From Candidatus Woesearchaeota archaeon (lineage in GTDB: Archaea; Nanobdellota; Nanobdellia; Woesearchaeales; SKGA01): 64,000 nucleotides of DNA. The DNA is taken from assembly GCA_050187915.1 (NCBI GenBank), contig JBFXLI010000001.1, positions 35,920 to 99,919 on the forward strand, in the 5' to 3' direction. Position numbers and translations under genes: made by a program. Below are positions 1,025-41,713 of this stretch, one piece after another. How positions within the stretch are numbered: position 1 is the stretch's first letter; the number at the start of each line of letters is the position of its first letter. The notes under the pieces are model-generated. The model did no database searches, was not told the origin of the DNA, and saw only the letters and a list, made by a program, of their open reading frames with translations.

Positions 1025-2809
1025 TTAATTGGCCTTCTTAGGGACTCTTTTTTTAGGTTTTGACTTTCTAGATGTAATTTTAAATACTAAAAAACCTGTA
1101 ATAAATCCCATAAAAAACAAGAAAACACAAAATAGCAATAATTTAATATCATATGCAAATGAATAGTTTTTTTGTTGTGGAAAATAATAACTTAAATCAC
1201 TAAATATTAATCCATATTCTGAAAATAACAAAGCAGTTTCTTCTTGTGTATCTATTAAATTTCTTGAATATTCTAAATAACTATAACCCATTATTGGAAA
1301 TGCATTTTTTTGTTTTGAAATCATTTCTTCAACTACATTTAATTTTTCTACAACAATTTCTTTTGTTTTATTTTCAGGAACACCAAAAATAGTCATAAAA
1401 TAATTTCCATTTGCTCTAGCTTTTGAAGCTGTGTATAAACACATAACATTATTTTGTTGATTTGAAAAATATTTTGCATGTTGATTTGCTTCTTTAATAC
1501 TTGATAAATAAATATCAGGAATATAAGCCTCTAAATAACTTAATATCATTTCTGATTTTTGAAGTTCACGAAAACAAGCGTTTCTTAGATGCTCTTCATC
1601 TATAATTAAAGATACTCCTTCTTGTCCTAAAAAAATACTCCAAGCAACTGCACTTTGATATCTTTCTATTGCAAAAGCTAAATCTGTATATGAAATATTT
1701 GTTGAATTTATATTTTTTAAATAATCTTTAGATTCTATTAATCTTTCTTGTATAATCATGTATGCTTCTAAATCTGTAAATGTTAATAATTCATATTCTG
1801 AAATACTTTTTTCAAATTTTTCAATTTTTTCATTTAATGAATTTAAATTTTCATTTAATAAAGTTTGACTTAAATTTTTAAGTTGTAATTCTCTTAATCT
1901 TAAGTTTGCTGAATAACAAAATGATGCAGTTGAATAATATTGTTCTTTTAATGAAGAATTTAAAGATTTTTCATAACTTTCTTGAGCTAAGACATATAAT
2001 TCGTCTTCTTTATTTTCAATTTGATTTAAGGATTCTATTGTTTTTTCGCATAAAATTTCGCTTGTTTTTTTCATAGTTTCAATATAAAATTCAGGTATTT
2101 GTATTTCTTTTTTATCTTCTGATTTAATTCCTGAAATTTTTTCAAATGCTTCGGAAATTGTTTTAACATAATATATATTTGAATATTTTTTAAAATCATT
2201 TTTGTTTAAAATTTCTTCATATAATTCATCAGTTTCATTAATGGTTGAATTTAATTGAGTTTTAAATTCTTCTTCAAAAATTAAACTATTATTTGTAAAT
2301 GCAAATTCAGGTAATATTATTAAATTTAAATTTTTTGCTGCTTCAACTTTTTCTTTTATTCCATCAACAGGTAAAATTATTCCTCCTGAAGAAATCATTC
2401 CTGTCATTGCAATATTTTCATTTATTGGAATATCTTCTAGTGTTGCTAAAGTTAGAAGAGTTATTGCTCCACCGGCACTAGGTCCACCAACTATTGCAGA
2501 ATCTGCTTTTATTGTATAAAAGAAATTATAATTTTCGCAATCAAATTTTGAGATTGAACAAGCAATTTCATTTGCGATTTTTGTTGAAAGTTGTGTATCT
2601 ATTTTTGACAATGGATAACTATCTATAAAAACTGAACCATGTCCTGGTTTTACTTGTAAAATTAATTGAGCTGTTTTTCCAACATAACTTCCGTTTTCTA
2701 ATTCTGCAACTGAAAGAAGCGTCATTGTGTTTACTTTATTTATATCTAAAGCATTTACAATAGGAAGTAATAATATTAAAATTAAACTTAGTAAAAATAT
2801 TTTTTTCAT
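1025..2809 (-). CDS. Signal-peptide / C-terminally membrane-anchored protein with an N-terminal Lon (S16) proteolytic domain, followed by a long helical region.
   Basis: Hydrophobic signal peptide MKKIFLLSLILILLLPIVNA. Then SAIVGGPSAGGAITLL...MTGMISSGG...KEKVEAAK, matching the Lon catalytic Ser motif GPSAG and the downstream Lys region. C-terminal TM helix plus a basic tail KPKKRVPKKAN. Confidence 0.5.
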   Translation of the reverse strand: MKKIFLLSLILILLLPIVNALDINKVNTMTLLSVAELENGSYVGKTAQLILQVKPGHGSVFIDSYPLSKIDTQLSTKIANEIACSISKFDCENYNFFYTIKADSAIVGGPSAGGAITLLTLATLEDIPINENIAMTGMISSGGIILPVDGIKEKVEAAKNLNLIILPEFAFTNNSLIFEEEFKTQLNSTINETDELYEEILNKNDFKKYSNIYYVKTISEAFEKISGIKSEDKKEIQIPEFYIETMKKTSEILCEKTIESLNQIENKEDELYVLAQESYEKSLNSSLKEQYYSTASFCYSANLRLRELQLKNLSQTLLNENLNSLNEKIEKFEKSISEYELLTFTDLEAYMIIQERLIESKDYLKNINSTNISYTDLAFAIERYQSAVAWSIFLGQEGVSLIIDEEHLRNACFRELQKSEMILSYLEAYIPDIYLSSIKEANQHAKYFSNQQNNVMCLYTASKARANGNYFMTIFGVPENKTKEIVVEKLNVVEEMISKQKNAFPIMGYSYLEYSRNLIDTQEETALLFSEYGLIFSDLSYYFPQQKNYSFAYDIKLLLFCVFLFFMGFITGFLVFKITSRKSKPKKRVPKKAN

Positions 2810-9302: not shown

Positions 9303-9800
9303 TCAATAATTTAAATAAACTATTGCAAAATTCAAAATCATTGCAAAGCTAACCCATAATATATAAGGAATTAGTAAGTACGCTGATGGTTTTGAAATTT
9401 TATAAAAATAATAAATTGTTATTGCTATTGCAATCAATAATATCACTATTTCTATTGAAGCTAAAAGTGGAGATTTAAAACCAAAAAATAAAATGCTCCA
9501 AAGTAAATTTAAAAATAATTGAATTGAAAAAATAGTTATTGCTTTTTTCTTAAATTTAGATTTTTTCTTGTTATCCCAAATAATATATAATGATATTCCC
9601 ATTAAAATAAATAAAGTTGTCCAAACAGGACCAAATAAATAATTTGGTGGATTAAAGCTTGGTTTAATTATTGTTGTATACCATGTTTTTACTGATGGTG
9701 CTGTAAATATAGAACCAATTATTCCTGCTAATTGACAAATTAAAATCGCAGAAACTAATTTCCAATAATTTATTTTTTTTAAATTTTTTATTTCAAACAT
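9303..9800 (-). CDS. tspO: TspO/MBR tryptophan-rich sensory protein.
   Basis: Five TM helices. NPPNYLFGPVWTTLFILMGIS and LLIPYILWVSFA are characteristic TspO blocks. Confidence 0.8.
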   Translation of the reverse strand: MFEIKNLKKINYWKLVSAILICQLAGIIGSIFTAPSVKTWYTTIIKPSFNPPNYLFGPVWTTLFILMGISLYIIWDNKKKSKFKKKAITIFSIQLFLNLLWSILFFGFKSPLLASIEIVILLIAIAITIYYFYKISKPSAYLLIPYILWVSFAMILNFAIVYLNY

Positions 9801-26742: not shown

Positions 26743-26817
26743 GGCAGGGCCTGGGATTTGAACCCAAACTAGAAGATCCACAGTCTTCTGTGCTAACCAG
26801 ATTACACTAACCCCACC
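26743..26817 (-). tRNA. tRNA-His (anticodon GUG), with the G-1 residue genomically encoded and no encoded CCA.
   Basis: The minus strand reads G(-1)-GTGGGGT-TA-GTGT-AATCTGGTTA-GCAC-A-GAAGA-CTGTGGA-TCTTC-TAGTT-TTGGG-TTCAAAT-CCCAG-GCCCTGC-C. The cloverleaf folds: acceptor 7 bp (three G.U pairs), D arm 4 bp, anticodon stem GAAGA/TCTTC with loop CTGTGGA (U33, GTG at 34-36, G37), T arm TTGGG/CCCAG with a TTCAAAT loop, and discriminator C73 pairing G-1. A TATA-like TTTATAT sits ~25 nt upstream. Confidence 0.8.
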
Positions 26818-27807: not shown

Positions 27808-29397
27808 ATGCATCCAACTGAATTTAAAATTATTCAACTACTTGGAAAAGAAACAAAAGAACTTAATACAACTGAACTTATTTCTGAAATTTTCAAGAAT
27901 GAATTTAAAAAAGTAAATGAAGATTTAAAAAGTTATGAAAAAGTAATAGTACAAGAAGCAAAAAGAACAAAGGCACAAATGCATAGAAAAATTCTATATC
28001 ATTTAAATAAATTAACCAAAGAAAATTATATTTATGTTGTTAGCACTCATGGTAAAGGTGAAAAATTATTTAAAATTAATGAAGAAAAAAGACTTGAAAA
28101 TACTAAAGATGATGAAATAAAAACAATTTTAGATAATTTAAATAAAAATAAAGATACATTTCCTTTAGGATTGGAAGGATACGAAGAAGAAGGAATTATA
28201 AGAATACATGGTGAAACAGATTGGAGTAATAAAATAAATGCTATTTTTTTAAAACCAATTTTAGACATAAATAAATTTATGAATTTATTACATAATATTT
28301 ATTCGTACATAAATGATTGTATAGGAATTTTAAATTTTCAAGAATATATCGAAACTAAAAATGAAGATGAAACAAAAAATTTTTTAAAAAAAATAAATTT
28401 AGACAGTACAGATTATGGTAAAAGAATTTCAATACAAATTAATTTAGAAAGAAAAGTTAATTTTAATAAAATGTTAGAGTTTATTAAATTATTTTCTGAG
28501 TTGAAACCAAAAAATATAGAATGTGTTTTTCAAATAACAAAAGAAAGTCTGAAAGAAAATTTAAAATTATTTAAAGAAATAACTCAAATATTTTGTAAGG
28601 AAAAAATAAGAATAAATATACAAAATTCACATGTACATGAAGCTCCTATTATTGTTGGTTTAACTGGTACGTATAGTTTGTGTAAAAAAGATTGGGATAG
28701 TTATAATAAAATTCAAGATAAAGTTATAGGTGTATGTGTGTCTGATACTGTTATAGGAATGGATGTAGAAAAAATATATAATTTACCAAAGTCTTTTGTA
28801 ACTATGAAAGAAATTTTTTCAAAAATTTCAAAAGCATTACTTTTGGCATCATCTAATCATAGAAAAAAATCAGATAGTTTATTTAAAAAAATAAATGATT
28901 ATAATAAACCTTATGAAAATTATTTTTTCTCAGTATCTTCTAACTACATACGTTTGTGGAATTATGATCCTGATAGAGAAGATTATAATATGTTTGTTTC
29001 AAGTTTACAAGATATAGAACAATATTTAGATGATTTTTCAAAAACAGAAGAAACTATTTTTAAATCATGTGGAATTCCAATAAGATTTAAAATTTCTTTA
29101 TCAAGTGCATTTGGTAAGTTTGGAGAAAAAATGAGTAAAAGAAAGTATGAAAAAATTACTATAAAAAATAAGGAAGATTTAACTTCTGAAAAAACTAAAA
29201 ATTATATAGAAAAAAGAAAACAATTATTTGATTTATTTATGTGTGACAGAATAAGATTTTTTAGAAATGAAGATTATAATACTACTAAGATAACAGATGA
29301 ATTTTTTACAATAATGGATAATTATAGATTACCTTTTTTTTCTTATGATTTTAAACCAAGACAAGGAAATTTAACACTTAATACATTTTTCAAATGA
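27808..29397 (+). CDS. Large hypothetical protein with an N-terminal winged-helix domain (529 aa).
   Basis: N-terminal MHPTEFKIIQLLGKETKELNTTELISEIF... is HTH-like. The remaining ~430 aa have no recognisable motifs. Its stop overlaps the next gene's start (ATGA). Confidence 0.4.
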   Translation: MHPTEFKIIQLLGKETKELNTTELISEIFKNEFKKVNEDLKSYEKVIVQEAKRTKAQMHRKILYHLNKLTKENYIYVVSTHGKGEKLFKINEEKRLENTKDDEIKTILDNLNKNKDTFPLGLEGYEEEGIIRIHGETDWSNKINAIFLKPILDINKFMNLLHNIYSYINDCIGILNFQEYIETKNEDETKNFLKKINLDSTDYGKRISIQINLERKVNFNKMLEFIKLFSELKPKNIECVFQITKESLKENLKLFKEITQIFCKEKIRINIQNSHVHEAPIIVGLTGTYSLCKKDWDSYNKIQDKVIGVCVSDTVIGMDVEKIYNLPKSFVTMKEIFSKISKALLLASSNHRKKSDSLFKKINDYNKPYENYFFSVSSNYIRLWNYDPDREDYNMFVSSLQDIEQYLDDFSKTEETIFKSCGIPIRFKISLSSAFGKFGEKMSKRKYEKITIKNKEDLTSEKTKNYIEKRKQLFDLFMCDRIRFFRNEDYNTTKITDEFFTIMDNYRLPFFSYDFKPRQGNLTLNTFFK

Positions 29398-30059
29398 GGT
29401 ACAATATGGAAATTAAAGATAAAGATGTAATGCAAATGTGGAAAAAAAGCATTAAACATGTTTTGGAAAATGGAAGAGAATATGTTGATAATGATAAAAG
29501 AATTTGTAAGGAAGTTTTTAATTTAATGTTAGTTGTTGAGAATGTTGAAAAAGAAAAAATAGAAATGCCAATGAATTTAATATATGATTTCGAAAAATGG
29601 ATATATCCATCAAAAGAAGAACTTATAAATTTAATTTTTAAAAAATCTCAAGCTCCTGTTTATGAATATACTCATGGAGGAAGAATTTTTAATTTTGGTA
29701 ATGTAAAAAATCAAGTAGATGAATTTATTATTCCTGTTTTGAAAAAAGATAATGATTCAAGAAGAGCTTTAGTTATTATTTATGATCCATTAATAGATTC
29801 AATTTTTGGAAATATAAATACGCCTTCATTAATATCTTTACATTTTAGAATTATTGAAGATAAATTAAATATAACTGGTTTAATTAGAAGTAATGATTTA
29901 TTATTTGGTTTACCTTCTAATTTATTTCAAATTTATTTAATTCAAGAATATGTTGCAAAACAATTCATGTTAAAACTTGGTTCTATGACTATTATAAGTC
30001 ATTCAGCTCACTTTTTTATAGAAAGTGAAAATCCTTTATTAGATAAATTAAAAGAATAA
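29394..30059 (+). CDS. Thymidylate-synthase (ThyA)-fold protein whose catalytic Cys-His dyad is replaced by Ser-Leu.
   Basis: Collinear with ThyA. DSRRALVIIYDP matches DSRRIIVSAWN, and INTPSLISLHFRI sits where ThyA has LAPCHAFFQFYV. ITGLIRSNDLLFGLPSNLFQIYLIQEYVAKQ matches [33 protein letters not shown], and SHSAHFF sits where ThyA has GGDTHLY. R-S-D and the Asn of the PxN motif are kept; the nucleophile Cys is not. Confidence 0.65.
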   Translation: MRYNMEIKDKDVMQMWKKSIKHVLENGREYVDNDKRICKEVFNLMLVVENVEKEKIEMPMNLIYDFEKWIYPSKEELINLIFKKSQAPVYEYTHGGRIFNFGNVKNQVDEFIIPVLKKDNDSRRALVIIYDPLIDSIFGNINTPSLISLHFRIIEDKLNITGLIRSNDLLFGLPSNLFQIYLIQEYVAKQFMLKLGSMTIISHSAHFFIESENPLLDKLKE

Positions 30060-30099
30060 AAATATAAATTAAATAAAAATACTTAAAAAAGGTTTAAAA

Positions 30100-33000
30100 A
30101 TGGAATTCAAAACTATCACAGAAAAATGGCAGAAAAAATGGGAAGAAGGAAAAATATTTGAAGTTGAAAAAAACGAAAAACCTAAATTTTATGTTTTAGA
30201 AATGTTTCCTTATCCTTCGGGTTCTGGACTTCATGTTGGTCATGCATTTAATTATACTATTGGAGATGTTATTGCAAGGTTTAAATTAATGAATGGTTTT
30301 AATGTATTGCATCCAATGGGATATGATAGTTTTGGTTTACCAGCTGAAAATGCTGCGATAAAAGAAGGTATGCATCCTGATGAATATACACAAAAGTCTA
30401 TGAAAAATTTTAAAATTCAACAAAAAAGATTGGGATTAACTTATGATTGGAATAGAATGGTCGCAACTAGTACTTCTGAATTCTATAAATGGGATCAATG
30501 GATTTTCATTCAAATGTATAAAAAAGGTTTAGCTTATCGTAAAAAGTCTCCTATTAATTGGTGTCCAAAATGTAATACTGTTTTAGCCAATGAACAAGTT
30601 CATAATGGAAAGTGTTGGCGTCATGAAGATACTTCTGTTGAAATTAAACATTTGACTCAATGGTATTTTAAAACAACTGCTTATGCTGAAGAATTAAATG
30701 ATCAAAGTAAACTTGAAGAATGGCCTGAATTAGTTAAAAAACTACAAAAAAATTGGATTGGTAAAAGTTATGGTACTGAAGTTGTCTTTAGTATTAAAGA
30801 TAAAAATATATCTAATGTAATTATTGTTCATGGTTCAAATTCAACTGAAGAAGGGTCAAAAAAATCTCCTGAAAATGAAAGACATTGGAAACGTTGGTTG
30901 AAAAACGAACTTGAAAAAGAAGGAATTAAAGTTTCAAATGAATTGTATCCTAATGATTGGTATCCTAAATATAATGATTGGAAAGAATTATTTGAAAAAA
31001 ATAATATTGATGAAAATAGCATATTAATAGGACATTCTGCAGGTGGAGCATTTTTAGTTAGATGGTTAGATGAAACTGGAAGAAAAATAAAAAAATTAAT
31101 ACTAGTATCACCAGGAAAAGCAGGAAAACAAAGTAGAAATTTTTTGGATGATCTTTATGGAAATGTAACAATTAAAAATATTGGTAAAAATGTTAAGAGT
31201 GAAATTGTTATTTATACTTCAAACAATGATATTGAAAAACACATTATTGGAGCTAAAGAATATTCTGAAGAATTACCTGCTAAAGTAATAACTCTTGAAA
31301 ACAAGGGACATTTCACAGAAAAAGAAATGGGTACAAAAGAATTTCCTGAATTATTAAATGAAGTTCTATATGAAGATTGGAAAGTTTTCACAACTCGTCC
31401 AGATACTTTAATGGGAGTTACATTTTTAGTAATCTCAGCTCAACACACAAGACTAATGGAATTAGTTACAAAAGATCAAAAGAAAAAAGTTGAAGATTTT
31501 GTGAAAAAATTAACTTCTGTATCTGAAGAAGAAATTGACCAATTAGAGAAAGAAGGAGTATTTACTGGCAGTTATGCAACCCATCCAATTACAAATGAAA
31601 AAATTCCAGTTTATGCTGGTAATTTCGTTCTAGCTGATTATGGTTGTGGTATGGTTATGGCTGTTCCTACTCATGATCAAAGAGATTTTGAATTTGCAAA
31701 AAAATATAATATTCCTATGAAGCAAGTTATTGCGCCATATTTTATAACTGACAAAGGTCCTGATGCTTTTCAGGTAGGAAAACCAGTTGTGAAAAGACAT
31801 TCAATTCATGTTATAATAAAACATTGGAGTGAAGATAAATACTTATGTCTTGATTGGACTAAATTTGGTTGGCATACTTTAGTTGTAGGAGGAATAAATG
31901 AAGGAGAATCTCCTGAAGAAGCTACAGTTAGAGAAATTGAAGAAGAAACAGGTTATCAAGACATTAAATCAATTAAAAATTTAAACTTAGATATAATTGG
32001 TGAATTTTACGCTTCTCATAAAAATGAAAATCGTTCCGCACATTTTGTTTCTATGTTTGTGGAACTGGGTTCTGATAAACAAGTTGAAACTAAACCAGAA
32101 CATAATAAACATCATAAAATGGTTTGGTTAGATAAAAAGGATGTAATGAATTTTTTAAACATTCCAACTTATAATAAAAATTGGGAAACTTATTTGAATG
32201 AAGAATGTGCATACACTGATGCTGGAAGATTAATTAATTCTGGTAATTTTAATGATTTACCTAACGATAAAGCTAAAGAAGAAATCACAAAAGAACTTAC
32301 AAAATTAAATAAAGGGAATAAAACTGTAAATTTTAAATTAAGAGATTGGTTAATTTCCAGACAACGATATTGGGGAACACCTATTCCAATAATTTATTGT
32401 GAAAATTGTGGTGAAGTTCTTGATGAAAATATTCCTGTTACTTTACCTATGGATGTTAAATTTGGTGAAGGTAATCCTTTAACAACTTCAGAAAGTTTTG
32501 TTAATTGCAAATGTCCTAAGTGTGGAAATGATGCAAAACGTGAAACAGATACTATGGATACTTTTGTTAATTCGTCTTGGTATAATTTAAGATATGCTGA
32601 TGCAAAAAATAATAAAGAAATTTTCAACAAAGAAAAAGTAAATTATTGGAATCCAATTGATTTATACATTGGCGGAAAAGAACACGCTTGTATGCATTTA
32701 ATATATATTAGATTCTATACTAAATTTTTACGAGATTTGGGATTATTAAATTTTGATGAGCCTGCAATTAAAATGTTTAACCAAGGTATGATTCAAGGTG
32801 CTGATGGAAATAAAATGTCTAAATCTAAAGGTAATACTGTTGATGTTACTGAAATTATTGATAAATATGGTGCTGATGCATTAAGAATGTATTTAGTTTC
32901 TGTTGCTGGACCTGAATCTGATTTTAACTGGAATGATAGAGGTTTAGAATCTATTGCAAAATTTTTGAATAAAGTAGAAGATTATTTTGAAAATGTTAGA

Positions 33001-33702
33001 ATAAATTCTTCAACACAAAAAACAAATAATAAAGTTCATTCAACATTGAAAGAAGTTACAATTTTAATTGAAAAGATGAGATTTAATTTAGCAATAATTA
33101 AAATAAGAGAATTATTTGATTATTTATCTAATGAAGAAAGTAAAGAAAATTTAGAAATATTTGTAAAAATGTTAAGTCCTTTTTGTCCTCATTTAGCAGA
33201 AGAATTATCGGAAAAAATTGGTAATAAAGAATTTGTTTCAATTTCAAATTGGCCTAAATTTGATGAAAGTAAAATAAATTCTGAATTTGATTTTGAAGAT
33301 AAATTTATTTTAGAAGTTAAAGAAGATATTTCAAATGTTCAAAAATTACTTAAAATAGAAAAAATAAATTCTTTGAAATTAATAGTTGCAAATAAATGGA
33401 AATATGATTTATATTTAAAATTAAAATCAATATTAAATGAAATTTCAAATCCAAATGAAATTATTCCTAAAATTATGAATTCAGAATTAAAACAATATGG
33501 ACAAGAAATTATGAAAATAGTTCCTAAAATTGTAAAAACAAAAGTAGTTCCTGATTTTGTTTCTCAAGAGAAAGAAGAAGAAATTCTTAAAAATTTAGTT
33601 AAGGAATTTGATTTTAAAGTTGAAGTTAGTTTAGCTGAAGACTCACAAGAAGCAAAAGCAAAGAATGCAATGCCCGGTAAACCAAGCATAATTGTAAATT
33701 AA
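30100..33702 (+). CDS. leuS: Leucyl-tRNA synthetase, bacterial type, 1200 aa, carrying two inserted domains (alpha/beta serine hydrolase and NUDIX).
   Basis: PYPSGSGLHVGHAFNYTIGD (HIGH), TTRPDTLMGVTF (CP1 start), VPTHDQRDFEFAKKY, RDWLISRQRYWGTPIP, and KMSKSKGN (KMSKS). Insertion 1 is at ~30817-31367 (GHSAGG, YdeN-like). Insertion 2 is at ~31735-32215 (Nudix box GGINEGESPEEATVREIEEETGY). Confidence 0.9.
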   Translation: MEFKTITEKWQKKWEEGKIFEVEKNEKPKFYVLEMFPYPSGSGLHVGHAFNYTIGDVIARFKLMNGFNVLHPMGYDSFGLPAENAAIKEGMHPDEYTQKSMKNFKIQQKRLGLTYDWNRMVATSTSEFYKWDQWIFIQMYKKGLAYRKKSPINWCPKCNTVLANEQVHNGKCWRHEDTSVEIKHLTQWYFKTTAYAEELNDQSKLEEWPELVKKLQKNWIGKSYGTEVVFSIKDKNISNVIIVHGSNSTEEGSKKSPENERHWKRWLKNELEKEGIKVSNELYPNDWYPKYNDWKELFEKNNIDENSILIGHSAGGAFLVRWLDETGRKIKKLILVSPGKAGKQSRNFLDDLYGNVTIKNIGKNVKSEIVIYTSNNDIEKHIIGAKEYSEELPAKVITLENKGHFTEKEMGTKEFPELLNEVLYEDWKVFTTRPDTLMGVTFLVISAQHTRLMELVTKDQKKKVEDFVKKLTSVSEEEIDQLEKEGVFTGSYATHPITNEKIPVYAGNFVLADYGCGMVMAVPTHDQRDFEFAKKYNIPMKQVIAPYFITDKGPDAFQVGKPVVKRHSIHVIIKHWSEDKYLCLDWTKFGWHTLVVGGINEGESPEEATVREIEEETGYQDIKSIKNLNLDIIGEFYASHKNENRSAHFVSMFVELGSDKQVETKPEHNKHHKMVWLDKKDVMNFLNIPTYNKNWETYLNEECAYTDAGRLINSGNFNDLPNDKAKEEITKELTKLNKGNKTVNFKLRDWLISRQRYWGTPIPIIYCENCGEVLDENIPVTLPMDVKFGEGNPLTTSESFVNCKCPKCGNDAKRETDTMDTFVNSSWYNLRYADAKNNKEIFNKEKVNYWNPIDLYIGGKEHACMHLIYIRFYTKFLRDLGLLNFDEPAIKMFNQGMIQGADGNKMSKSKGNTVDVTEIIDKYGADALRMYLVSVAGPESDFNWNDRGLESIAKFLNKVEDYFENVRINSSTQKTNNKVHSTLKEVTILIEKMRFNLAIIKIRELFDYLSNEESKENLEIFVKMLSPFCPHLAEELSEKIGNKEFVSISNWPKFDESKINSEFDFEDKFILEVKEDISNVQKLLKIEKINSLKLIVANKWKYDLYLKLKSILNEISNPNEIIPKIMNSELKQYGQEIMKIVPKIVKTKVVPDFVSQEKEEEILKNLVKEFDFKVEVSLAEDSQEAKAKNAMPGKPSIIVN

Positions 33703-33724
33703 TTTTATTATTTTAATTATATTC

Positions 33725-34050
33725 TGAAAGAAAAAACTGACGTCTGCTCCACTGATTCGCTGACTCCAGAAAAAAGTGGCGCGCAAGGCAGTGGACTTAA
33801 CAAATATCTGAATGATAGTCTGAAATAATTCTACTCTCTGCAACCCTTTAAACACCGATTGAATGTACGCATGGCTGCTACCGTCAGGTCCTGACCAGGT
33901 TTGTAAAACAAACGATCAAAAAGGACAGAGCATCAAACAAATTAAATCAGCATGCAAACATTTGCAAGCCGCCTGCCAAGCTTCGATTCGCCCAACGATC
34001 CGTTTGACGCAACAGGTGAGGATCAGCCACCCAATCTAGCCATCTTTAGA
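33725..34050. other. Non-coding GC-rich island (~48-50% GC against a ~27% background); candidate structured RNA (possibly SRP/7S RNA on the minus strand) or foreign DNA.
   Basis: No ORF of 60 aa or more apart from one spurious one overlapping the LeuRS end. It contains GACGTC, GCGCGC, AAGCTT and GCATGC, all rare in this genome. The minus strand carries CCUGGUCAGGACCUGACGGUAGCAGCC, which resembles SRP RNA helix 8 (CCAGGUCAGGUCCGGAAGGAAGCAGCC in E. coli 4.5S), with the U-A pair covarying to A-U. Confidence 0.3.
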
Positions 34051-34080
34051 AAAGAATAAGTTGTTTATAAAAGTAATGTT

Positions 34081-35001
34081 CTAAATTAAAAAAATCAATA
34101 ACCAACTAAAAATAGCTCCTAGAAAGCATCCCATTGAAATAAATGGCATTGCAGGATAAAATTTGCCTTTTTTAGAATAGTAAAATAATAAGAATAAAGC
34201 TAAAGTTGTTATAATTATTATTGGTAAAACGAATAAATAAGAGTTTATAATTGAAAAACCATTTTTAATTAAATTTTCCATAACAACTCCTGTAAATAAC
34301 AATGGAAAAACTACGTCTCCTCCACCAAGTATTGCTGTTTTTGATTTATTTTTTGTAGAATTTTTTAAATTTATTTTTTTATGAGATTGTTTTATTTTAT
34401 TTGCTTCATAATTTATTGTCAATCCTGCAAACATATTTGATTCTGCTGTAAACTTTGCTAAAGTAATCATGTGTTTACTTTTCCAAACTGCATACATATC
34501 ATATATTGAAATTAAAATTAATACTATTGAAATCCAAAATAAATCAAATAAAGGAACTAAAAATATTGCAAGTCCTGAATACATTAAAACTTCAGTTATA
34601 TTGTGAGTATATATATTTGGTTTTAATATTTTTATTGTAGCTATAATTATTGCTAAAATTAAAGCAATTTGTGCAGATAGAATTACACCTAAACTTATTG
34701 ATACTGTCATTATTACTGCTAATATGTACCAAAATTTCCAAATTTTTTTAGCCTTGTATTTAGCTAAAAATAACAATAATAATGTTCCAATTAATACTCC
34801 TATTATTATATATATTAAGCTTTGCCCACCATTAAATTCAGGACGTTCACCTATTACTGTTTCTGGATGTACAACAACTAATTCTCCTGTATCAGATATT
34901 GTTAAATTATCTATATCTGCTGCAATAAAAGCTAAACCTATTAATTGAGATAAGAAAAATATAAAAACTAAAATTAATGTTACTTTAAATTCATGTTTCA
35001 T
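34081..35001 (-). CDS. Presenilin/signal-peptide-peptidase-like intramembrane aspartyl protease (A22 family homolog).
   Basis: Polytopic membrane protein with the three hallmark motifs in order: ISIYDMYAVW (YD), AILGGGDVVFP (GxGD), and FYPAMPFIS (the PAL-like motif). Confidence 0.6.
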   Translation of the reverse strand: MKHEFKVTLILVFIFFLSQLIGLAFIAADIDNLTISDTGELVVVHPETVIGERPEFNGGQSLIYIIIGVLIGTLLLLFLAKYKAKKIWKFWYILAVIMTVSISLGVILSAQIALILAIIIATIKILKPNIYTHNITEVLMYSGLAIFLVPLFDLFWISIVLILISIYDMYAVWKSKHMITLAKFTAESNMFAGLTINYEANKIKQSHKKINLKNSTKNKSKTAILGGGDVVFPLLFTGVVMENLIKNGFSIINSYLFVLPIIIITTLALFLLFYYSKKGKFYPAMPFISMGCFLGAIFSWLLIFLI

Positions 35002-35915
35002 CTATTTTTAGAAGTTTTAGTTGGTTTAATAATGTTTTTCTTTTTGGGAGAAATTTTTGATTTTTTGACTGATTTCTTTTTGACTGATTTCTTTTTGACT
35101 GATTTCTTTGATTTATCAATTGAAATATTATTCTTAACATTATTAGTATATGCCGAAAAAGAACTATTTTCACTAAAGAATTTTGAAGTTCTAGATATTT
35201 TTATCATTCTTGTGAGTCTAAAACTTGTTTGAAAAATTTTTATAATTCTAGCAGCTCTAACTATTTTAAATGCTCTAAAAAAACCTATTGAAGGTATTGA
35301 AGCTAAAACATCGAAAAAGTTTTTTGTAATGAATTTTTTAAAAGATTCAGCTTTTTCATAAAGTATTATTACATCAACTATAAATAAAGCAGTTATAATT
35401 AAATCAACCATATCTAATATTGCAATATAATTTGATAAATCATAAAATGTTTGGAGTAAAAGTTGTAAAATTGCTACTGCTACTGCTACTAAAATAATTA
35501 TTCCCCATAATATTTCAAAAGAAGATTTATCTAAATGTTCGGGCGTAATTTCTGAATGAATTGAATCTTCTATTCCTGATGCTTTAGTAATTGTGTTTAA
35601 TATTTCTTTAAATCCAACTGTAACTACAGAAGCTGCTGAAACTAATATGAAATTGGATAATATTTTACCAAATGGTGAAAGTGAAAAAAATGAACCTAAC
35701 ATATTTAATAAAATTGAACCTGCAATAACAAATGAAACACTTGCAATCAGAAAATCTTTTTCTTCTGAAAGTAAAAATAAACCTACTAAAACTCCTGAAA
35801 ATACGAGTACAATTGATTTTGCAATTTGTAAATTAACTGAAAATGTTTGGAAAGAACCATCTATTATTGCGAGCATTGAAGCTAAGACAAAAAAATAAAG
35901 TCCTACTTTGTTCAT
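34998..35915 (-). CDS. Membrane protein with a voltage-sensor-like domain (S4-type Arg/Lys repeats) and a K-rich repetitive C-terminal tail.
   Basis: Four N-terminal TM helices. Then an S2/S3-like helix with acidic residues (LDMVDLIITALFIVDVIILY). Then FRAFKIVRAARIIKIFQTSFRLTRMIKISR, with a basic residue every third position. The tail is KSVKKKSVKKKSVKKSKISPKKK. No pore-loop/selectivity filter is evident. Confidence 0.45.
   Translation of the reverse strand: MNKVGLYFFVLASMLAIIDGSFQTFSVNLQIAKSIVLVFSGVLVGLFLLSEEKDFLIASVSFVIAGSILLNMLGSFFSLSPFGKILSNFILVSAASVVTVGFKEILNTITKASGIEDSIHSEITPEHLDKSSFEILWGIIILVAVAVAILQLLLQTFYDLSNYIAILDMVDLIITALFIVDVIILYEKAESFKKFITKNFFDVLASIPSIGFFRAFKIVRAARIIKIFQTSFRLTRMIKISRTSKFFSENSSFSAYTNNVKNNISIDKSKKSVKKKSVKKKSVKKSKISPKKKNIIKPTKTSKNR
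35061..35110. repeat. 15-bp tandem repeat (~3 copies) inside the CDS, encoding the KSVKK repeats.
   Basis: GACTGATTTCTTTTT repeated three times head to tail at 35067-35110. Confidence 0.7.
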
Positions 35916-36166
35916 TTTTTGTTGTTCCTCATCACTTTAATTCTTGCTTTTCTTACTTCATGATGTTCATCTATAGCTAATTCTTCTTCTATAGGTGCAT
36001 AAGTCATACTAATAAATGAAGCAACAAACATACAAATACTTATAAAACCGACAATAAAAGCCCAATTTAAAGAATAATTTTTTAAGAATAATGTTGAAAT
36101 TAATATTCCTAGCATAGATACTAACATAAAACTTCCAGATAATGGTGCTACTTTAAACATTCTCAA
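35912..36166 (-). CDS. Small two-TM membrane protein, hypothetical.
   Basis: 84 aa with two hydrophobic helices and a basic tail. Overlaps the downstream gene by 4 nt. Confidence 0.35.
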   Translation of the reverse strand: MRMFKVAPLSGSFMLVSMLGILISTLFLKNYSLNWAFIVGFISICMFVASFISMTYAPIEEELAIDEHHEVRKARIKVMRNNKK

Positions 36167-36211
36167 CTCACCCCAATGAACTTATTTGACGTGTTTCATT
36201 TATATATGTTT

Positions 36212-36433
36212 CTATTCGAGAAGTTCAAATCTAGGCACAATTTTGCCTTGAAATTCGACTTTTTCAAGAAACATTGATAATGGACGAACCCAAAATTCAT
36301 TAAAATTAGCATCTAATCTTTTGTATAAAACTAATTCTTCTAAAGTTTCGCTGTGTTTAGCAATTCCAATAACTTCATATAAATGTCCTTTAAAATTTCT
36401 ATATTTGCCTAATTTCAATTTTTCCATTGACAA
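36212..36433 (-). CDS. DUF1653-like small protein.
   Basis: KYRNFKGHLYEVIGIAKHSETLEELVLYKRL...WVRP, the pattern typical of DUF1653. Confidence 0.45.
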   Translation of the reverse strand: MSMEKLKLGKYRNFKGHLYEVIGIAKHSETLEELVLYKRLDANFNEFWVRPLSMFLEKVEFQGKIVPRFELLE

Positions 36434-36510
36434 AAAACAACATAAAAAGTATATAAATTTAAGGAAAATTTAACAATTAATTTATAAATAAATAAATATT
36501 TTCAAAAAAT

Positions 36511-38094
<1,584 letters not shown>

Positions 38095-38149
38095 TTATAA
38101 AATTATTGTAATAGAAAACTATTTAAAAAAGAAATGAAGAATAAAGTGT

Positions 38150-39091
38150 GTGGAAAACGATATTTACACAAGATATAATAATTTATTAATAAGACATTTT
38201 AAATTATTTATTGAAAATAATCTAAAATTATTCATGAGTGATGATTGTGATAGTAAAAAACTTCTTTTGGAAAAATTAAAATTTGAACTTGACAGAAGTG
38301 CAGTTATAAGAAAAGATATTCCAAATAAATCTGTTCCATTTGTTAAAATATACAAAAATATTTATTCTTTGTTGTTTGAAGATAAAATTTTCAAAAAATC
38401 TTATTTAACTTTGTTAAAAAAAGAAGGGGAGAAAACAGGAATTTCTAGTATGTTAAACAAATCCAATGACAAATTAATAAAATATGAAAATGAAATATAT
38501 GATTTTATAATGAAAGAAGTTAAAGAACATAAGTTAGATGTTAATTCATTTGCTTTTAAAAATTATGTTCCTGCCGGAATTCTTTCAAAAAGTTTTTTAG
38601 GTAGGTGCTTAGTTATGATGCTTTTATTTTTAATGTCTTATGGAAATATAGGTAGCATTTATGGACAAGATAAAACAGTTTTAAATAATTATACACAAGA
38701 AGAACTAATAGAAAAAAATAATTTAAATTTAAATAAAGAAGAAATGAAAAAATTAAATCAACTTCTTGAAAAATTAGAGTTTGGTGAAAATAAATTTCAA
38801 ACAATTGAAGGAAAGAAAATTTTTGTGAATAAATTTAAAACAGATGAAGGAAGTATTAAAATTGAATTTGGTGGAAAAGCTGAGTCTTTTTCGATAAGTG
38901 ATTTTCCTCAATTAATAATTGATTCTACTAAAACAATTAAATTAAAACCTGCTTTTATAGATTTATTGATGTATAATATGAGAAACTCTAGTGAAAAAGA
39001 GAAAGAAATAATTAAAAATAAAATTTATCAAAAGATGCAAGAAGAAAAACAATTAAATAAAATAATTAATTCAATAATTATAAATAAATAA
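38150..39091 (+). CDS. Hypothetical protein with one internal TM segment (313 aa).
   Basis: Intact ORF, K/E/N-rich, central hydrophobic helix LVMMLLFLMSYG. No family recognised. Confidence 0.35.
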   Translation: MENDIYTRYNNLLIRHFKLFIENNLKLFMSDDCDSKKLLLEKLKFELDRSAVIRKDIPNKSVPFVKIYKNIYSLLFEDKIFKKSYLTLLKKEGEKTGISSMLNKSNDKLIKYENEIYDFIMKEVKEHKLDVNSFAFKNYVPAGILSKSFLGRCLVMMLLFLMSYGNIGSIYGQDKTVLNNYTQEELIEKNNLNLNKEEMKKLNQLLEKLEFGENKFQTIEGKKIFVNKFKTDEGSIKIEFGGKAESFSISDFPQLIIDSTKTIKLKPAFIDLLMYNMRNSSEKEKEIIKNKIYQKMQEEKQLNKIINSIIINK

Positions 39092-41500
39092 TCATTTCCC
39101 TAATTTATTTTCAAGTTCTGCTATTGCTAATGTTGTTTTAACAACTGTATCAGGATTTAGACTCATTGTTTGAATTCCACATTCAACTACAAATTCAGCA
39201 AATTCAGGATAATCTGATGGAGCTTGGCCGCAGATTCCAATATATTTTCCTTTTCTATTTGCAACTTCAATAACTTCTTTAACTAATTTTTTTACGGCTG
39301 GATTTCTTTCATCATATATTGATGAAACTATTTCTGAATCTCTATCTAATCCTAATGTTAGTTGTGTTAAATCATTTGTTCCAATTGAAAATCCATCAAA
39401 AATATTTAAAAATTCATCTGCTAATAAAACATTGGAAGGAATTTCACACATTCCAATAACTTGTAAATCATTTTCTCCTTGTTTTAATCCATTTTTTGAC
39501 ATTTCATTTATTACTTTATTTGCTTCTTCTATTGTTCTACAAAATGGAATCATAACTTTTAAATTTTTTAAACCCATTTCATTTCTAACTTTAAGTATTG
39601 CTTGACATTCTAAGGCAAATCCTTCTACATAATTTCCTTGATAGTATCTTGAAGCTCCACGCCAACCAATCATTGGATTATCTTCTGTTGGTTCAAAAAA
39701 TTTTCCACCAATTAAATTAGCGTATTCATTTGATTTAAAATCACTCATTCTAAGAATTACTGGCTTTGGATAAAATGCTGCAGATATTTTTGCAATTCCG
39801 TGAGCTAATTTTTCAATAAAATATTGTTTTTTATCTTTATATCCTGAAGTCATATCTGAAATTTTTTGTTTTACTTCATCATTTGTTAATTCATCGAAAT
39901 GTATTAATGCTAAGGGATGTATTTTTATGTATGAATTTATTATAAATTCTTCTCTTGCTAATCCTACTCCTTCATTTGGTAAAAAACTAAGAGTAAATGC
40001 ATCTTCAGGATTACCAACATTCATCATTATTTTGGTTTTTGTTTTTGGAATATTATCTAAAGTTAATTTTTCAACATCGAATTTTAATTTTCCTTGATAA
40101 ATATATCCTTCGTCACCTTGACTGCAATCAACAGTAACTTCTTGTCCATCAATTAATTTTTCTGTTCCATTTTCAGTTCCAACAACACAAGGAATTCCCA
40201 GTTCACGACTAATGATTGCAGCGTGACAAGTTCTACCTCCACGATTGGTTACTATTGCAGATGCTATTTTCATTATTGGTTCCCAATCTGGATCTGTCAT
40301 ATCTGTTACAAGAACTTCTCCTTTTCTAAATTTATTTATGTCTTTAACATCTTTTATTACTTTAACTGAACCTGCACCTATTTTTTGTCCTACACTTCTT
40401 CCTACAACTAAAGTTGTTGCTTTTTCTTTTAATTTATATGTTTCAAGAATATTTAGATTTTTTCTTGATTGAACTGTTTCTGGACGTGCTTGAACTATGA
40501 ATAATTTTCCACTCTCGCCATCTTTAGCCCATTCCATATCCATAGGCTTGAAATGATTTGCAAGTCTTGAATAATGATCTTCAATTTGTTGTGCCCATTT
40601 TGCAAGTAATAGTATTTCATCATCAGATATACAAAATTTCCTTCTTTCTGAAATTGGAACATCAACATTTTTTACAGGTTTATTTCCTTCGTTACTATAA
40701 ATCATTTTTATTGCTTTTTCACCTATTTGTTTTGAAATTATAGAACGATAACCTTCTCTTAGTGTTGGTTTAAATACATAAAATTCATCTGGGTTTACTG
40801 CTCCTTGAACTACATTTTCTCCTAAACCATAAGCTCCTGTTATAAATATTGCATCTTTAAATCCTGTTTCTGTATCTATTGAAAACATTACTCCACTTGA
40901 AGCTAAATCACTTCTAACCATTTTTTGAACTCCAATTGAAAGTCCTATTGAAAAATGATCGAAATTTTTATCCACACGATAACTTATTGCTCTGTTTGTA
41001 AATAGAGAAGCAAAACATAATTTGCATGCATTAATTAAATCATTTGGTCCTTTTATGTTAAGATATGTTTCTTGTTGTCCAGCAAAAGAAGCATCTGGTA
41101 AATCTTCAGCTGTTGCACTGCTTCGTACTGCAACATCAACATTATTTCCATATTGTAAACATAAATTATTATAAGCTTCAACAATTTGATTTTTTAAATC
41201 ATCTGGAAATTCTGCATGTCTTATTAAACTTCTAACTTTATGTCCTCTTTCAGAAAGATTTTGCATGTCATGAGTGTTTAAATCTGACAATATTTGTTTT
41301 ATTTCTTCACGAATTCCTGATTTGTCAAGAAGATAATGATATGCTCTTGCAGTTATACAAAAACCATTTAGAATATTAACTCCATAAGGAATTAAGTTAC
41401 TATACATTTCACCAAGAGAAGCATTTTTTCCACCAACTAAACCAACATCACCAATACCAACTTGGTCAAACCAAAGAATTAAAGCATCATTTTTATTCAT
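39092..41500 (-). CDS. ppsA: Phosphoenolpyruvate synthase (pyruvate, water dikinase).
   Basis: N-terminal PPDK_N (LVGGKNASLGEM), phosphohistidine domain GGRTCHAAIISRELGIPCVVG, and a C-terminal PEP-utilising TIM barrel. The real start is the ATG at 41500, preceded by GAGGTGA (SD-like); the track start is GTG at 41509. Confidence 0.85.
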   Translation of the reverse strand: MNKNDALILWFDQVGIGDVGLVGGKNASLGEMYSNLIPYGVNILNGFCITARAYHYLLDKSGIREEIKQILSDLNTHDMQNLSERGHKVRSLIRHAEFPDDLKNQIVEAYNNLCLQYGNNVDVAVRSSATAEDLPDASFAGQQETYLNIKGPNDLINACKLCFASLFTNRAISYRVDKNFDHFSIGLSIGVQKMVRSDLASSGVMFSIDTETGFKDAIFITGAYGLGENVVQGAVNPDEFYVFKPTLREGYRSIISKQIGEKAIKMIYSNEGNKPVKNVDVPISERRKFCISDDEILLLAKWAQQIEDHYSRLANHFKPMDMEWAKDGESGKLFIVQARPETVQSRKNLNILETYKLKEKATTLVVGRSVGQKIGAGSVKVIKDVKDINKFRKGEVLVTDMTDPDWEPIMKIASAIVTNRGGRTCHAAIISRELGIPCVVGTENGTEKLIDGQEVTVDCSQGDEGYIYQGKLKFDVEKLTLDNIPKTKTKIMMNVGNPEDAFTLSFLPNEGVGLAREEFIINSYIKIHPLALIHFDELTNDEVKQKISDMTSGYKDKKQYFIEKLAHGIAKISAAFYPKPVILRMSDFKSNEYANLIGGKFFEPTEDNPMIGWRGASRYYQGNYVEGFALECQAILKVRNEMGLKNLKVMIPFCRTIEEANKVINEMSKNGLKQGENDLQVIGMCEIPSNVLLADEFLNIFDGFSIGTNDLTQLTLGLDRDSEIVSSIYDERNPAVKKLVKEVIEVANRKGKYIGICGQAPSDYPEFAEFVVECGIQTMSLNPDTVVKTTLAIAELENKLGK

Positions 41501-41713
41501 AATAATCACCTCTTGAAGCTTAAAACTAGAAAAAAGATCTCACCTCTTTTTCCCTAGTTTTAGACTATAATTATTATGTTTGTTTTGAGTTTATAAATGT
41601 TAGTTACTATTTTAAAATGAATACTGAATTTAATTAAATCATGTATTTTTAAATTAAATAAGAAAAATAAAAGAAAAAATGAAAAAATAAAAAAGAAAAT
41701 TAAAATTAAAAAA

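Follow-up and report, generated by a model that had tools for sequence, protein, structure and literature searches.

The GC-rich island behind leuS in the Woesearchaeota DNA analysed here (64,000 nucleotides, hereafter the window) is an SRP (7S) RNA gene. SRP RNA is present in every cell, and the gene as such is ordinary and expected. The architecture of its product departs from the definition of the archaeal family in two features that were tested: helix 6 is absent, and the loop at the tip of helix 8 is of the URRC class in place of GRRA. This architecture matches the large bacterial type, and it is common to all Woesearchaeota-type relatives that were recovered and to a nanohaloarchaeon. 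Taken together, we read the locus as a Woesearchaeota SRP RNA gene, present in a single copy within the window, whose RNA has no helix 6 and probably works in a particle with SRP54 as its only protein. We assign this reading a probability of about 0.9.

A structured RNA gene between leuS and the SPP gene

The preliminary description had noted an island of about 50% GC that starts immediately past the leuS stop codon. The island is real and stands out, at a GC content of about 45%: positions 33725-34050 have a GC fraction of 0.448 against a window mean of 0.253 (sd 0.042), and no 326-nt segment in the 64 kb is richer in GC than the one that begins at 33724 (GC 0.451, about 4.7 sd over the mean). 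It does not adjoin leuS directly, since an AT-rich spacer of about 35 nt lies between the stop codon (33700-33702) and the first GC-rich base at 33737. Among the palindromes listed as nearly absent elsewhere, GCGCGC has one occurrence in the window and GACGTC and GCATGC have two each, but AAGCTT, found 19 times, is not rare. That no long ORF crosses the island holds true, as just two mechanical ORFs of 58 and 70 aa are found. GC contents of 45-53% in genomes of 25-37% GC, as observed at the window and the related loci, are typical of structured RNA.

An SRP RNA on the minus strand had been proposed from a helix 8-like motif, and the Rfam search bears this out with a full-length match above the gathering score. 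Model positions 1-317 of Archaea_SRP (RF01857) align to the minus strand at 34046..33773 with 101.3 bits (gathering score 96.5), and the E-value of 8.3e-22 excludes chance. This is the single SRP hit in the 64-kb window. Archaea_SRP is also the best model of the SRP clan for this RNA; a second model of the clan passed the gathering score at the locus too and is hidden by clan competition. Apart from chance-level hits (E 0.02-5, far under the gathering scores), neither RNase P RNA nor any other Rfam family was found on the island at E<=10. A score of just 5 bits over the gathering score is to be expected given 40 absent model positions and the low GC content. Six DPANN SRP RNAs, those of the window, L121, L203, L204, L207 and L208, score 96.0-101.3 bits, and the DPANN RNAs lie 1-10 bits over the gathering score with the exception of L208, which stays 0.5 bits under it. 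The features of the gene and its flanks are collected in Table 1.

Table 1. Positions in the window of the SRP RNA gene, its structural elements, its putative expression signals and its two flanking genes
Feature	Position	Strand	Basis or remark
LeuS gene, 1200 aa	30100-33702	+	one flank of the island
Conserved U-rich stretch UUUUUUCUUUCAGAA after the 3' extension	33722..33736	-	probable distal terminator
GC-rich 3' extension CUGGAGUCAGCGAAUCAGUGGAGCAGACGUCAG	33737..33769	-	outside the SRP model and every Rfam model
T6 run right behind helix 1	33770..33775	-	possible proximal terminator; not conserved in L202, L207
SRP (7S) RNA core, 274 nt: helix 1, Alu domain, helix 5, helix 8, no helix 6	33773..34046	-	RF01857 match and covariation
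5e motif, 3' half GGGUUGC	33840..33846	-	pair counts and column conservation
Helix 8, SRP54 M-domain site: symmetric loop CAGG/AGCA, asymmetric loop, apical stem ACC/GGU	33866..33905	-	Rfam alignment
Apical tetraloop UGAC (URRC class, in place of GGAA)	33883..33886	-	sequence and Rfam alignment
Junction where helix 6 would branch, linker UUU alone	33906..33908	-	Rfam alignment
5e motif, 5' half GUCC	33923..33926	-	pairs with GG-GUU-GC at 33846..33840
Alu domain (helices 2-4)	33982..34037	-	Rfam alignment
TATA-like box TTTTATAAA	34064..34072	-	some 22-26 nt ahead of the RNA 5' end; putative promoter of archaeal type
Signal-peptide-peptidase (SPP) gene	34081-35001	-	stop codon faces the island; other flank

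Several observations concern the neighbourhood itself. An archaeal gene cluster, S13-S4-S11-RpoD-L18e-L13-S9, lies upstream within the window. The SPP protein is 100% identical to an NCBI protein of a Candidatus Woesearchaeota MAG, and both findings mark the host as archaeal. The flanking LeuS is of bacterial type (tRNA-synt_1_2 editing domain) and unusually long; according to Pfam, Ser_hydrolase (aa 259-418) and NUDIX (aa 590-684) domains are placed inside the synthetase, and the syntenic LeuS of L202 (1004 aa) has a NUDIX match between synthetase segments as well. The sole other RNA gene of the window is a tRNA at 26743-26816 (minus strand, 48.1 bits, GC 0.50), which adjoins the ribosomal protein cluster. 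A near-identical tRNA adjoins leuS in L202.

Fold of the RNA and absence of helix 6

Can the fold be recovered independently of the Rfam model? For this RNA, an alignment of seven divergent helix-6-less homologues with a mean column identity of 65% leads RNAalifold to the SRP fold, with 88 pairs, 60 of which show compensatory changes. When five tertiary pairs of the Alu loop-loop contact are added to this structure (93 pairs), 89.0% of the cells hold standard pairs, compared with 68.7 +/- 1.3 in shuffles, none of 500 of which reaches the observed value; sliding the partners by 1-3 columns leaves 39-50% paired. Double, that is compensatory, changes occur at 65 of the 93 pairs.

The individual elements follow the same pattern. 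Helix 1, which joins the two ends of the RNA (AAGAUGGC with GCCACUUU), is paired in 92% of the cells over the seven sequences and shows compensatory changes at three of four pairs. In the Alu domain the UGUNR motif reads UGUUG (34014..34010), helices 2, 3 and 4 are 98-100% paired, and the loop-loop helix between GAUCC (34024..34020) and GGAUC (34001..33997) covaries at all five pairs with 97% of the cells paired. The columns of the 5e motif are invariant or nearly so among ten homologues, and the motif agrees with the published 5e element of 11 nt, made of 4 bp plus a 3-nt loop (PMC2905702).

The minus strand carries the helix 8 motif CCUGGUCAGGACCUGACGGUAGCAGCC at 33899..33873, a shift of one base from the 33900-33874 first given for it. 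Of its 27 positions, 22 agree with the E. coli 4.5S string, fewer than the 24 or so that had been counted. The exchange of U-A for A-U next to the loop, described earlier as a covariation, is indeed compensatory and accounts for two of the five differences from E. coli. The columns GGUCAG and AGCAGC, which form the core of the SRP54 site, are invariant in ten homologues. The stems that flank the loops of this site are 100% paired in the seven-sequence alignment, and the apical stem covaries at three of three pairs.

The definition of Archaea_SRP includes a GRRA tetraloop, usually GGAA, and the window RNA has UGAC at this place. While this loop had been counted against an SRP assignment, it is widespread in genuine SRP RNAs and carries no weight against it. 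A scan with the pattern G-N-CAGG-N-CC-UGAC-GG-N-AGCA-N-C, taking one genome per species, found UGAC in the identical helix 8 context at no fewer than 120 loci (at least 120 species genomes), and all eight that were tested are Rfam SRP RNAs. Among the matches listed, carriers with typical SRP flanks include Staphylococcus, Lactococcus, many Clostridia, Planctomycetota and Sphingobium on the bacterial side, and Methanomassiliicoccales/Thermoplasmata, an Altiarchaeales MAG and a Nanohalobium MAG on the archaeal side; no member of the window's lineage is among these matches. In bacterial SRP RNAs, URRC has been called "another widespread alternative loop" (PMC4091067). The helix-6-less relatives L148, L164 and L137 have a GGAA loop.

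To our knowledge, every classically studied archaeon has a helix 6 to which SRP19 binds and which clamps onto helix 8. This arm, the SRP19 arm with its GNAR tetraloop and adenosine clamp to helix 8, is not found in the window RNA, a point that the preliminary description had overlooked, as it had the fact that 33772..33725 falls beyond the SRP model. Where the model has helix 6, the Rfam alignment sets three nucleotides, UUU, against a block of 40 consecutive positions, and the RNA is 274 nt long compared with about 310-317 nt for the archaeal form that bears helix 6. The RNAalifold consensus of the seven sequences shows no branch at this site; helix 5 continues straight to helix 8. The pairs on both sides of the junction are maintained through change: those of helix 5 that close onto it covary between the window and L121 (G-C to C-G and U-A to A-U), and the base of helix 8 changes from UAC/GUA to UGC/GCA in L204. 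Helix 6 is truly absent from the window RNA.

A canonical archaeal SRP RNA whose helix 6 has shrunk to the hairpin GUUUGU-UUU-ACAAAC (33915..33901), too small for the Rfam model to align, is the best surviving of the other explanations, and it is very unlikely. When the window RNA is folded alone, the MFE structure does contain this 6-bp hairpin. Over seven homologues, however, its positions are paired in 59.5% of cells, compared with 59.2% in shuffles, with no excess covariation, whereas the pairs that compete with it, namely the closure of helix 5 and the UAC/GUA base of helix 8, do covary. With a UUU loop the hairpin also has neither the GNAR loop nor the bulged adenosines, both of which define helix 6.

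Relatives, synteny and known SRP RNAs

The absence of helix 6 is not confined to the window. Look-ups anchored on LeuS in metagenomes gave an SRP RNA near leuS in five distinct loci (6 of 80 fetched), one of them bacterial; the archaeal SRP RNAs that adjoin leuS are those of L121, L148, L164 and L137/L138. Anchoring on SPP was far more productive and led to the syntenic loci L202, L203, L204, L207 and L210, in which the genes follow the order PPDK-GAPDH-x-x-SPP-SRP RNA-leuS. Four syntenic loci were aligned, and their SRP RNAs are 71-91% identical to that of the window. In the Rfam alignment, the RNAs of the relatives found through either anchor are 271-276 nt long and have 0-3 nt in place of helix 6; for the syntenic orthologues these values are 274-276 nt and 2-3 nt. 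For L210, the evidence that helix 6 is absent is an unbroken 104-nt match to a covariance model, built for this analysis, of the S domain in its helix-6-less form.

The same form occurs in two MAGs labelled "uncultured archaeon" (L001 and L112) and in a Nanohalobium MAG (L058), whose RNA is best matched by the bacterial large SRP model, again without helix 6. All three score more than 100 bits with the S-domain model. Overall, the Rfam alignments show the helix 6 gap in 11 further archaeal SRP RNAs, and 13 distinct DPANN-type SRP RNAs, the window's included, have in common a rod-like, helix-6-less architecture of 271-276 nt. This architecture is conserved in DPANN-type relatives.

Thermoplasmata and Altiarchaeales with the UGAC loop retain a different junction. 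All 25 loci of Thermoplasmata, Methanomassiliicoccales and Altiarchaeales reach 25-39 bits with the S-domain model, mostly through local matches at the tip of helix 8, and the Methanomassiliicoccales RNAs of L104 and L072, 309-312 nt long, have kept helix 6. These RNAs resemble the window RNA in their UGAC loop and differ from it in the arm.

Three further observations touch on the diversity of these RNAs and their genes. In the Altiarchaeales RNA of L088 (199-507, plus strand), an extra hairpin GCAUCAAACACUUUCGGGUGUUUGUGUUGC appears to lie 3' of helix 8 and not on the 5' side, the usual place of helix 6. A more distant RNA of the Woesearchaeota type, in L208 (9404-9710, plus strand, 96.0 bits), is also devoid of a canonical helix 6 and carries an insertion at about 9561-9593, a hairpin of about 33 nt (UUGCGUGGAAGAAGAGUUCUUUGCGCGCCCGAG) that interrupts the 5' side of helix 8 where the symmetric loop lies. 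Finally, the RNA gene is inverted within the SPP-leuS neighbourhood in L204 (8327..8052, minus strand) and L210 (about 2385..2112, minus strand), as compared with 34046..33773 in the window; in these inverted copies a U-run stands right behind helix 1 and there is no 3' extension.

A decaying or non-functional copy, with a working, helix-6-bearing SRP RNA elsewhere in the genome, would also explain a score near the gathering threshold, and the visible part of the genome is 64 kb. We regard this as slightly less probable even than the shrunken arm: 13 independent lineages keep the helix-6-less form with many compensatory changes, which a pseudogene would not do, the SRP54 site, the 5e motif and the Alu contacts are all intact, and signals resembling a promoter and a terminator are conserved.

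The gene neighbourhood extends the comparison beyond the RNA. The order PPDK/PEP synthase, GAPDH, two unknown ORFs, SPP, SRP RNA, leuS and thymidylate synthase is conserved in L202, L203 and L204, and this synteny is kept though the SPP proteins are just 52-57% identical to that of the window (window 34081-41509 and 29394-33702).

The abrupt jump in composition and the 58-aa stop-free frame antisense to the RNA might be taken to suggest foreign or contaminant DNA, an assembly chimera inserted past leuS, or a small GC-rich coding gene, but the likelihood of any of these is negligible: an independent assembly (a Logan contig from SRR27751817, 100% identical and gapless over window 31681-35091) runs through the island and past its two edges, so that a chimeric join and a contaminant insert are excluded, syntenic relatives carry the orthologous RNA in the same place, and the longest stop-free frame, for which 59 codons had been reported, differs in strand, frame and length among relatives while the substitutions track RNA pairing. 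The 58-aa antisense ORF was rejected as a gene on the same ground, being unconserved among relatives.

How does the RNA of this helix-6-less SRP RNA gene compare with the known types? With the archaeal 7S RNA (RF01857; Methanocaldococcus jannaschii, Archaeoglobus fulgidus) it shares the end-paired helix 1, Alu helices 2-4 with UGUNR and the loop-loop contact, the long helix 5 with its 5e motif, and the symmetric and asymmetric SRP54 loops of helix 8, as well as an archaeal host, a TATA-type promoter (putative here) and an oligo-U terminator (probable here). Unlike that RNA, it has no helix 6, no GNAR loop, no adenosine clamp between helices 6 and 8 and no SRP19 platform, it is about 40 nt shorter, it has UGAC instead of GRRA, and its sub-clade has an additional conserved 3' extension. 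The large bacterial SRP RNA of Bacillus type (RF01854, scRNA/6S type) resembles it in the terminal helix, the Alu domain and a helix 5 that leads directly into helix 8; the length is similar (about 270 nt), and URRC loops are common in this type (Staphylococcus, Lactococcus, Clostridia). In contrast to it, the window RNA is archaeal, scores best with the archaeal model and has a 5e motif of archaeal/eukaryotic type, and partners like the bacterial HBsu would not be expected for it.

Putative expression signals, 3' extension and the proposed particle

An A/T box is found upstream of the SRP RNA at an equal distance in all relatives, and this arrangement suggests that a TATA-type promoter, located a short way downstream of the SPP gene, drives the RNA. 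Transcription would proceed on the minus strand, heading to the 3' end of leuS. A scan for bacterial sigma-70 promoters and intrinsic terminators gave nothing above chance, with models that are bacterial and a host that is archaeal.

The island runs some 45-48 nt past the 3' end of the SRP model. The closest relatives, L202 and L207, share the GC-rich extension found there, L203 shares part of it, and L204, L210 and L121 do not have it. Its core, GYGAAUCRGYGGRGCAGA, occurs once in the window, and in the relatives it is found at the extension position alone, so that it is not a repeat. Within the extension there is a direct repeat, CWGYG-AAU-CRGYG. Behind it, UUUCUUUCAGAA is invariant in the window, L202, L207 and L203. 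Since L202 and L207 have no real U-run after helix 1 and UUUCUUUCAGAA past the extension is invariant, the primary transcript probably includes the extension; that is, the 3' extension is probably transcribed.

Attempts to assign a structure to the extension gave the following results. No Rfam family matches it at E<=10, its single-sequence folds are no better than those of shuffles (z -0.4 to -1.1), and RNAalifold on four sequences yields -6.2 kcal/mol with an unfavourable covariation term. The single pairing that recurs, of its AGUGGRGC with the 3' strand of helix 1, is a weak candidate. A link between the extension and leuS was considered and rejected, as L207 keeps the tail with no leuS downstream.

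The reference archaeal SRP consists of 7S RNA, SRP19 and SRP54, and helix 6 and SRP19 were found in every archaeal group surveyed (PMC2905702). In the known particles the M domain of SRP54 binds the loops of helix 8, the GTPase cycle of SRP54 and FtsY responds to the tetraloop and to distal helix 5, the Alu domain reaches the factor-binding site of the ribosome, and SRP19 attaches at the tips of helices 6 and 8 (PMC2905702, PMC6098224). SRP19 "coexists with helix 6", yet archaeal SRP54 binds the RNA without it, and its deletion in Haloferax caused no translocation phenotype, so that SRP19 is dispensable; the same work asks whether the protein is "defunct" (PMC2905702). For two cultivated nanohaloarchaea, FtsY, Ffh and an SRP RNA gene are listed while SRP19 goes unmentioned (PMC10266531), which fits SRP19-independence, although it is no proof of it.

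In the window RNA, the elements for the SRP54-dependent steps are conserved throughout. Helix 5 runs directly into helix 8, with no platform for SRP19, and the UGAC tetraloop would contact the SRP54-FtsY GTPase complex, by analogy with bacterial 4.5S RNA. The particle would have two components, this RNA and SRP54, in the architecture of the Bacillus-type bacterial particle. Judged from these sequence features, an SRP19-independent particle of RNA and SRP54 is the most likely arrangement. A phmmer search found no match to SRP19 in the 1.75 Mb of DNA covered, a fraction of the genomes concerned, to which the window contributes 64 kb. A word-indexed protein search returned 24 SRP19 proteins, which were Methanocaldococcus-like alone, divergent SRP19s being beyond its reach.

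A more far-reaching view is that the DPANN of the Woesearchaeota type, together with at least one Nanohalobium, have dropped the module of helix 6 and SRP19 and run a bacterial-style SRP, and that the 3' extension of the window's sub-clade stays in the mature RNA with a new function, for example in protein binding or stabilisation. We put this combination forward tentatively, at slightly under an even chance. In a bolder variant, the helix-6-less form may be ancestral in these lineages and not a product of reductive loss.

In the full-text literature, where coverage was incomplete and a prior description is possible, no account of the loss of helix 6 or SRP19 in DPANN archaea was found. The scores near the gathering threshold imply that SRP RNA is likely missed or mis-typed in DPANN annotation, as happened with L208. 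If SRP19 is indeed absent, it would be unfit as a completeness marker for these lineages. Lineages of DPANN that do without the SRP19-binding arm, with the other features of the SRP RNA under purifying selection, offer a natural answer to the question of a "defunct" SRP19. If true, they would represent a natural knockout, and the component lost would be one that is considered universal among Archaea and Eukarya.
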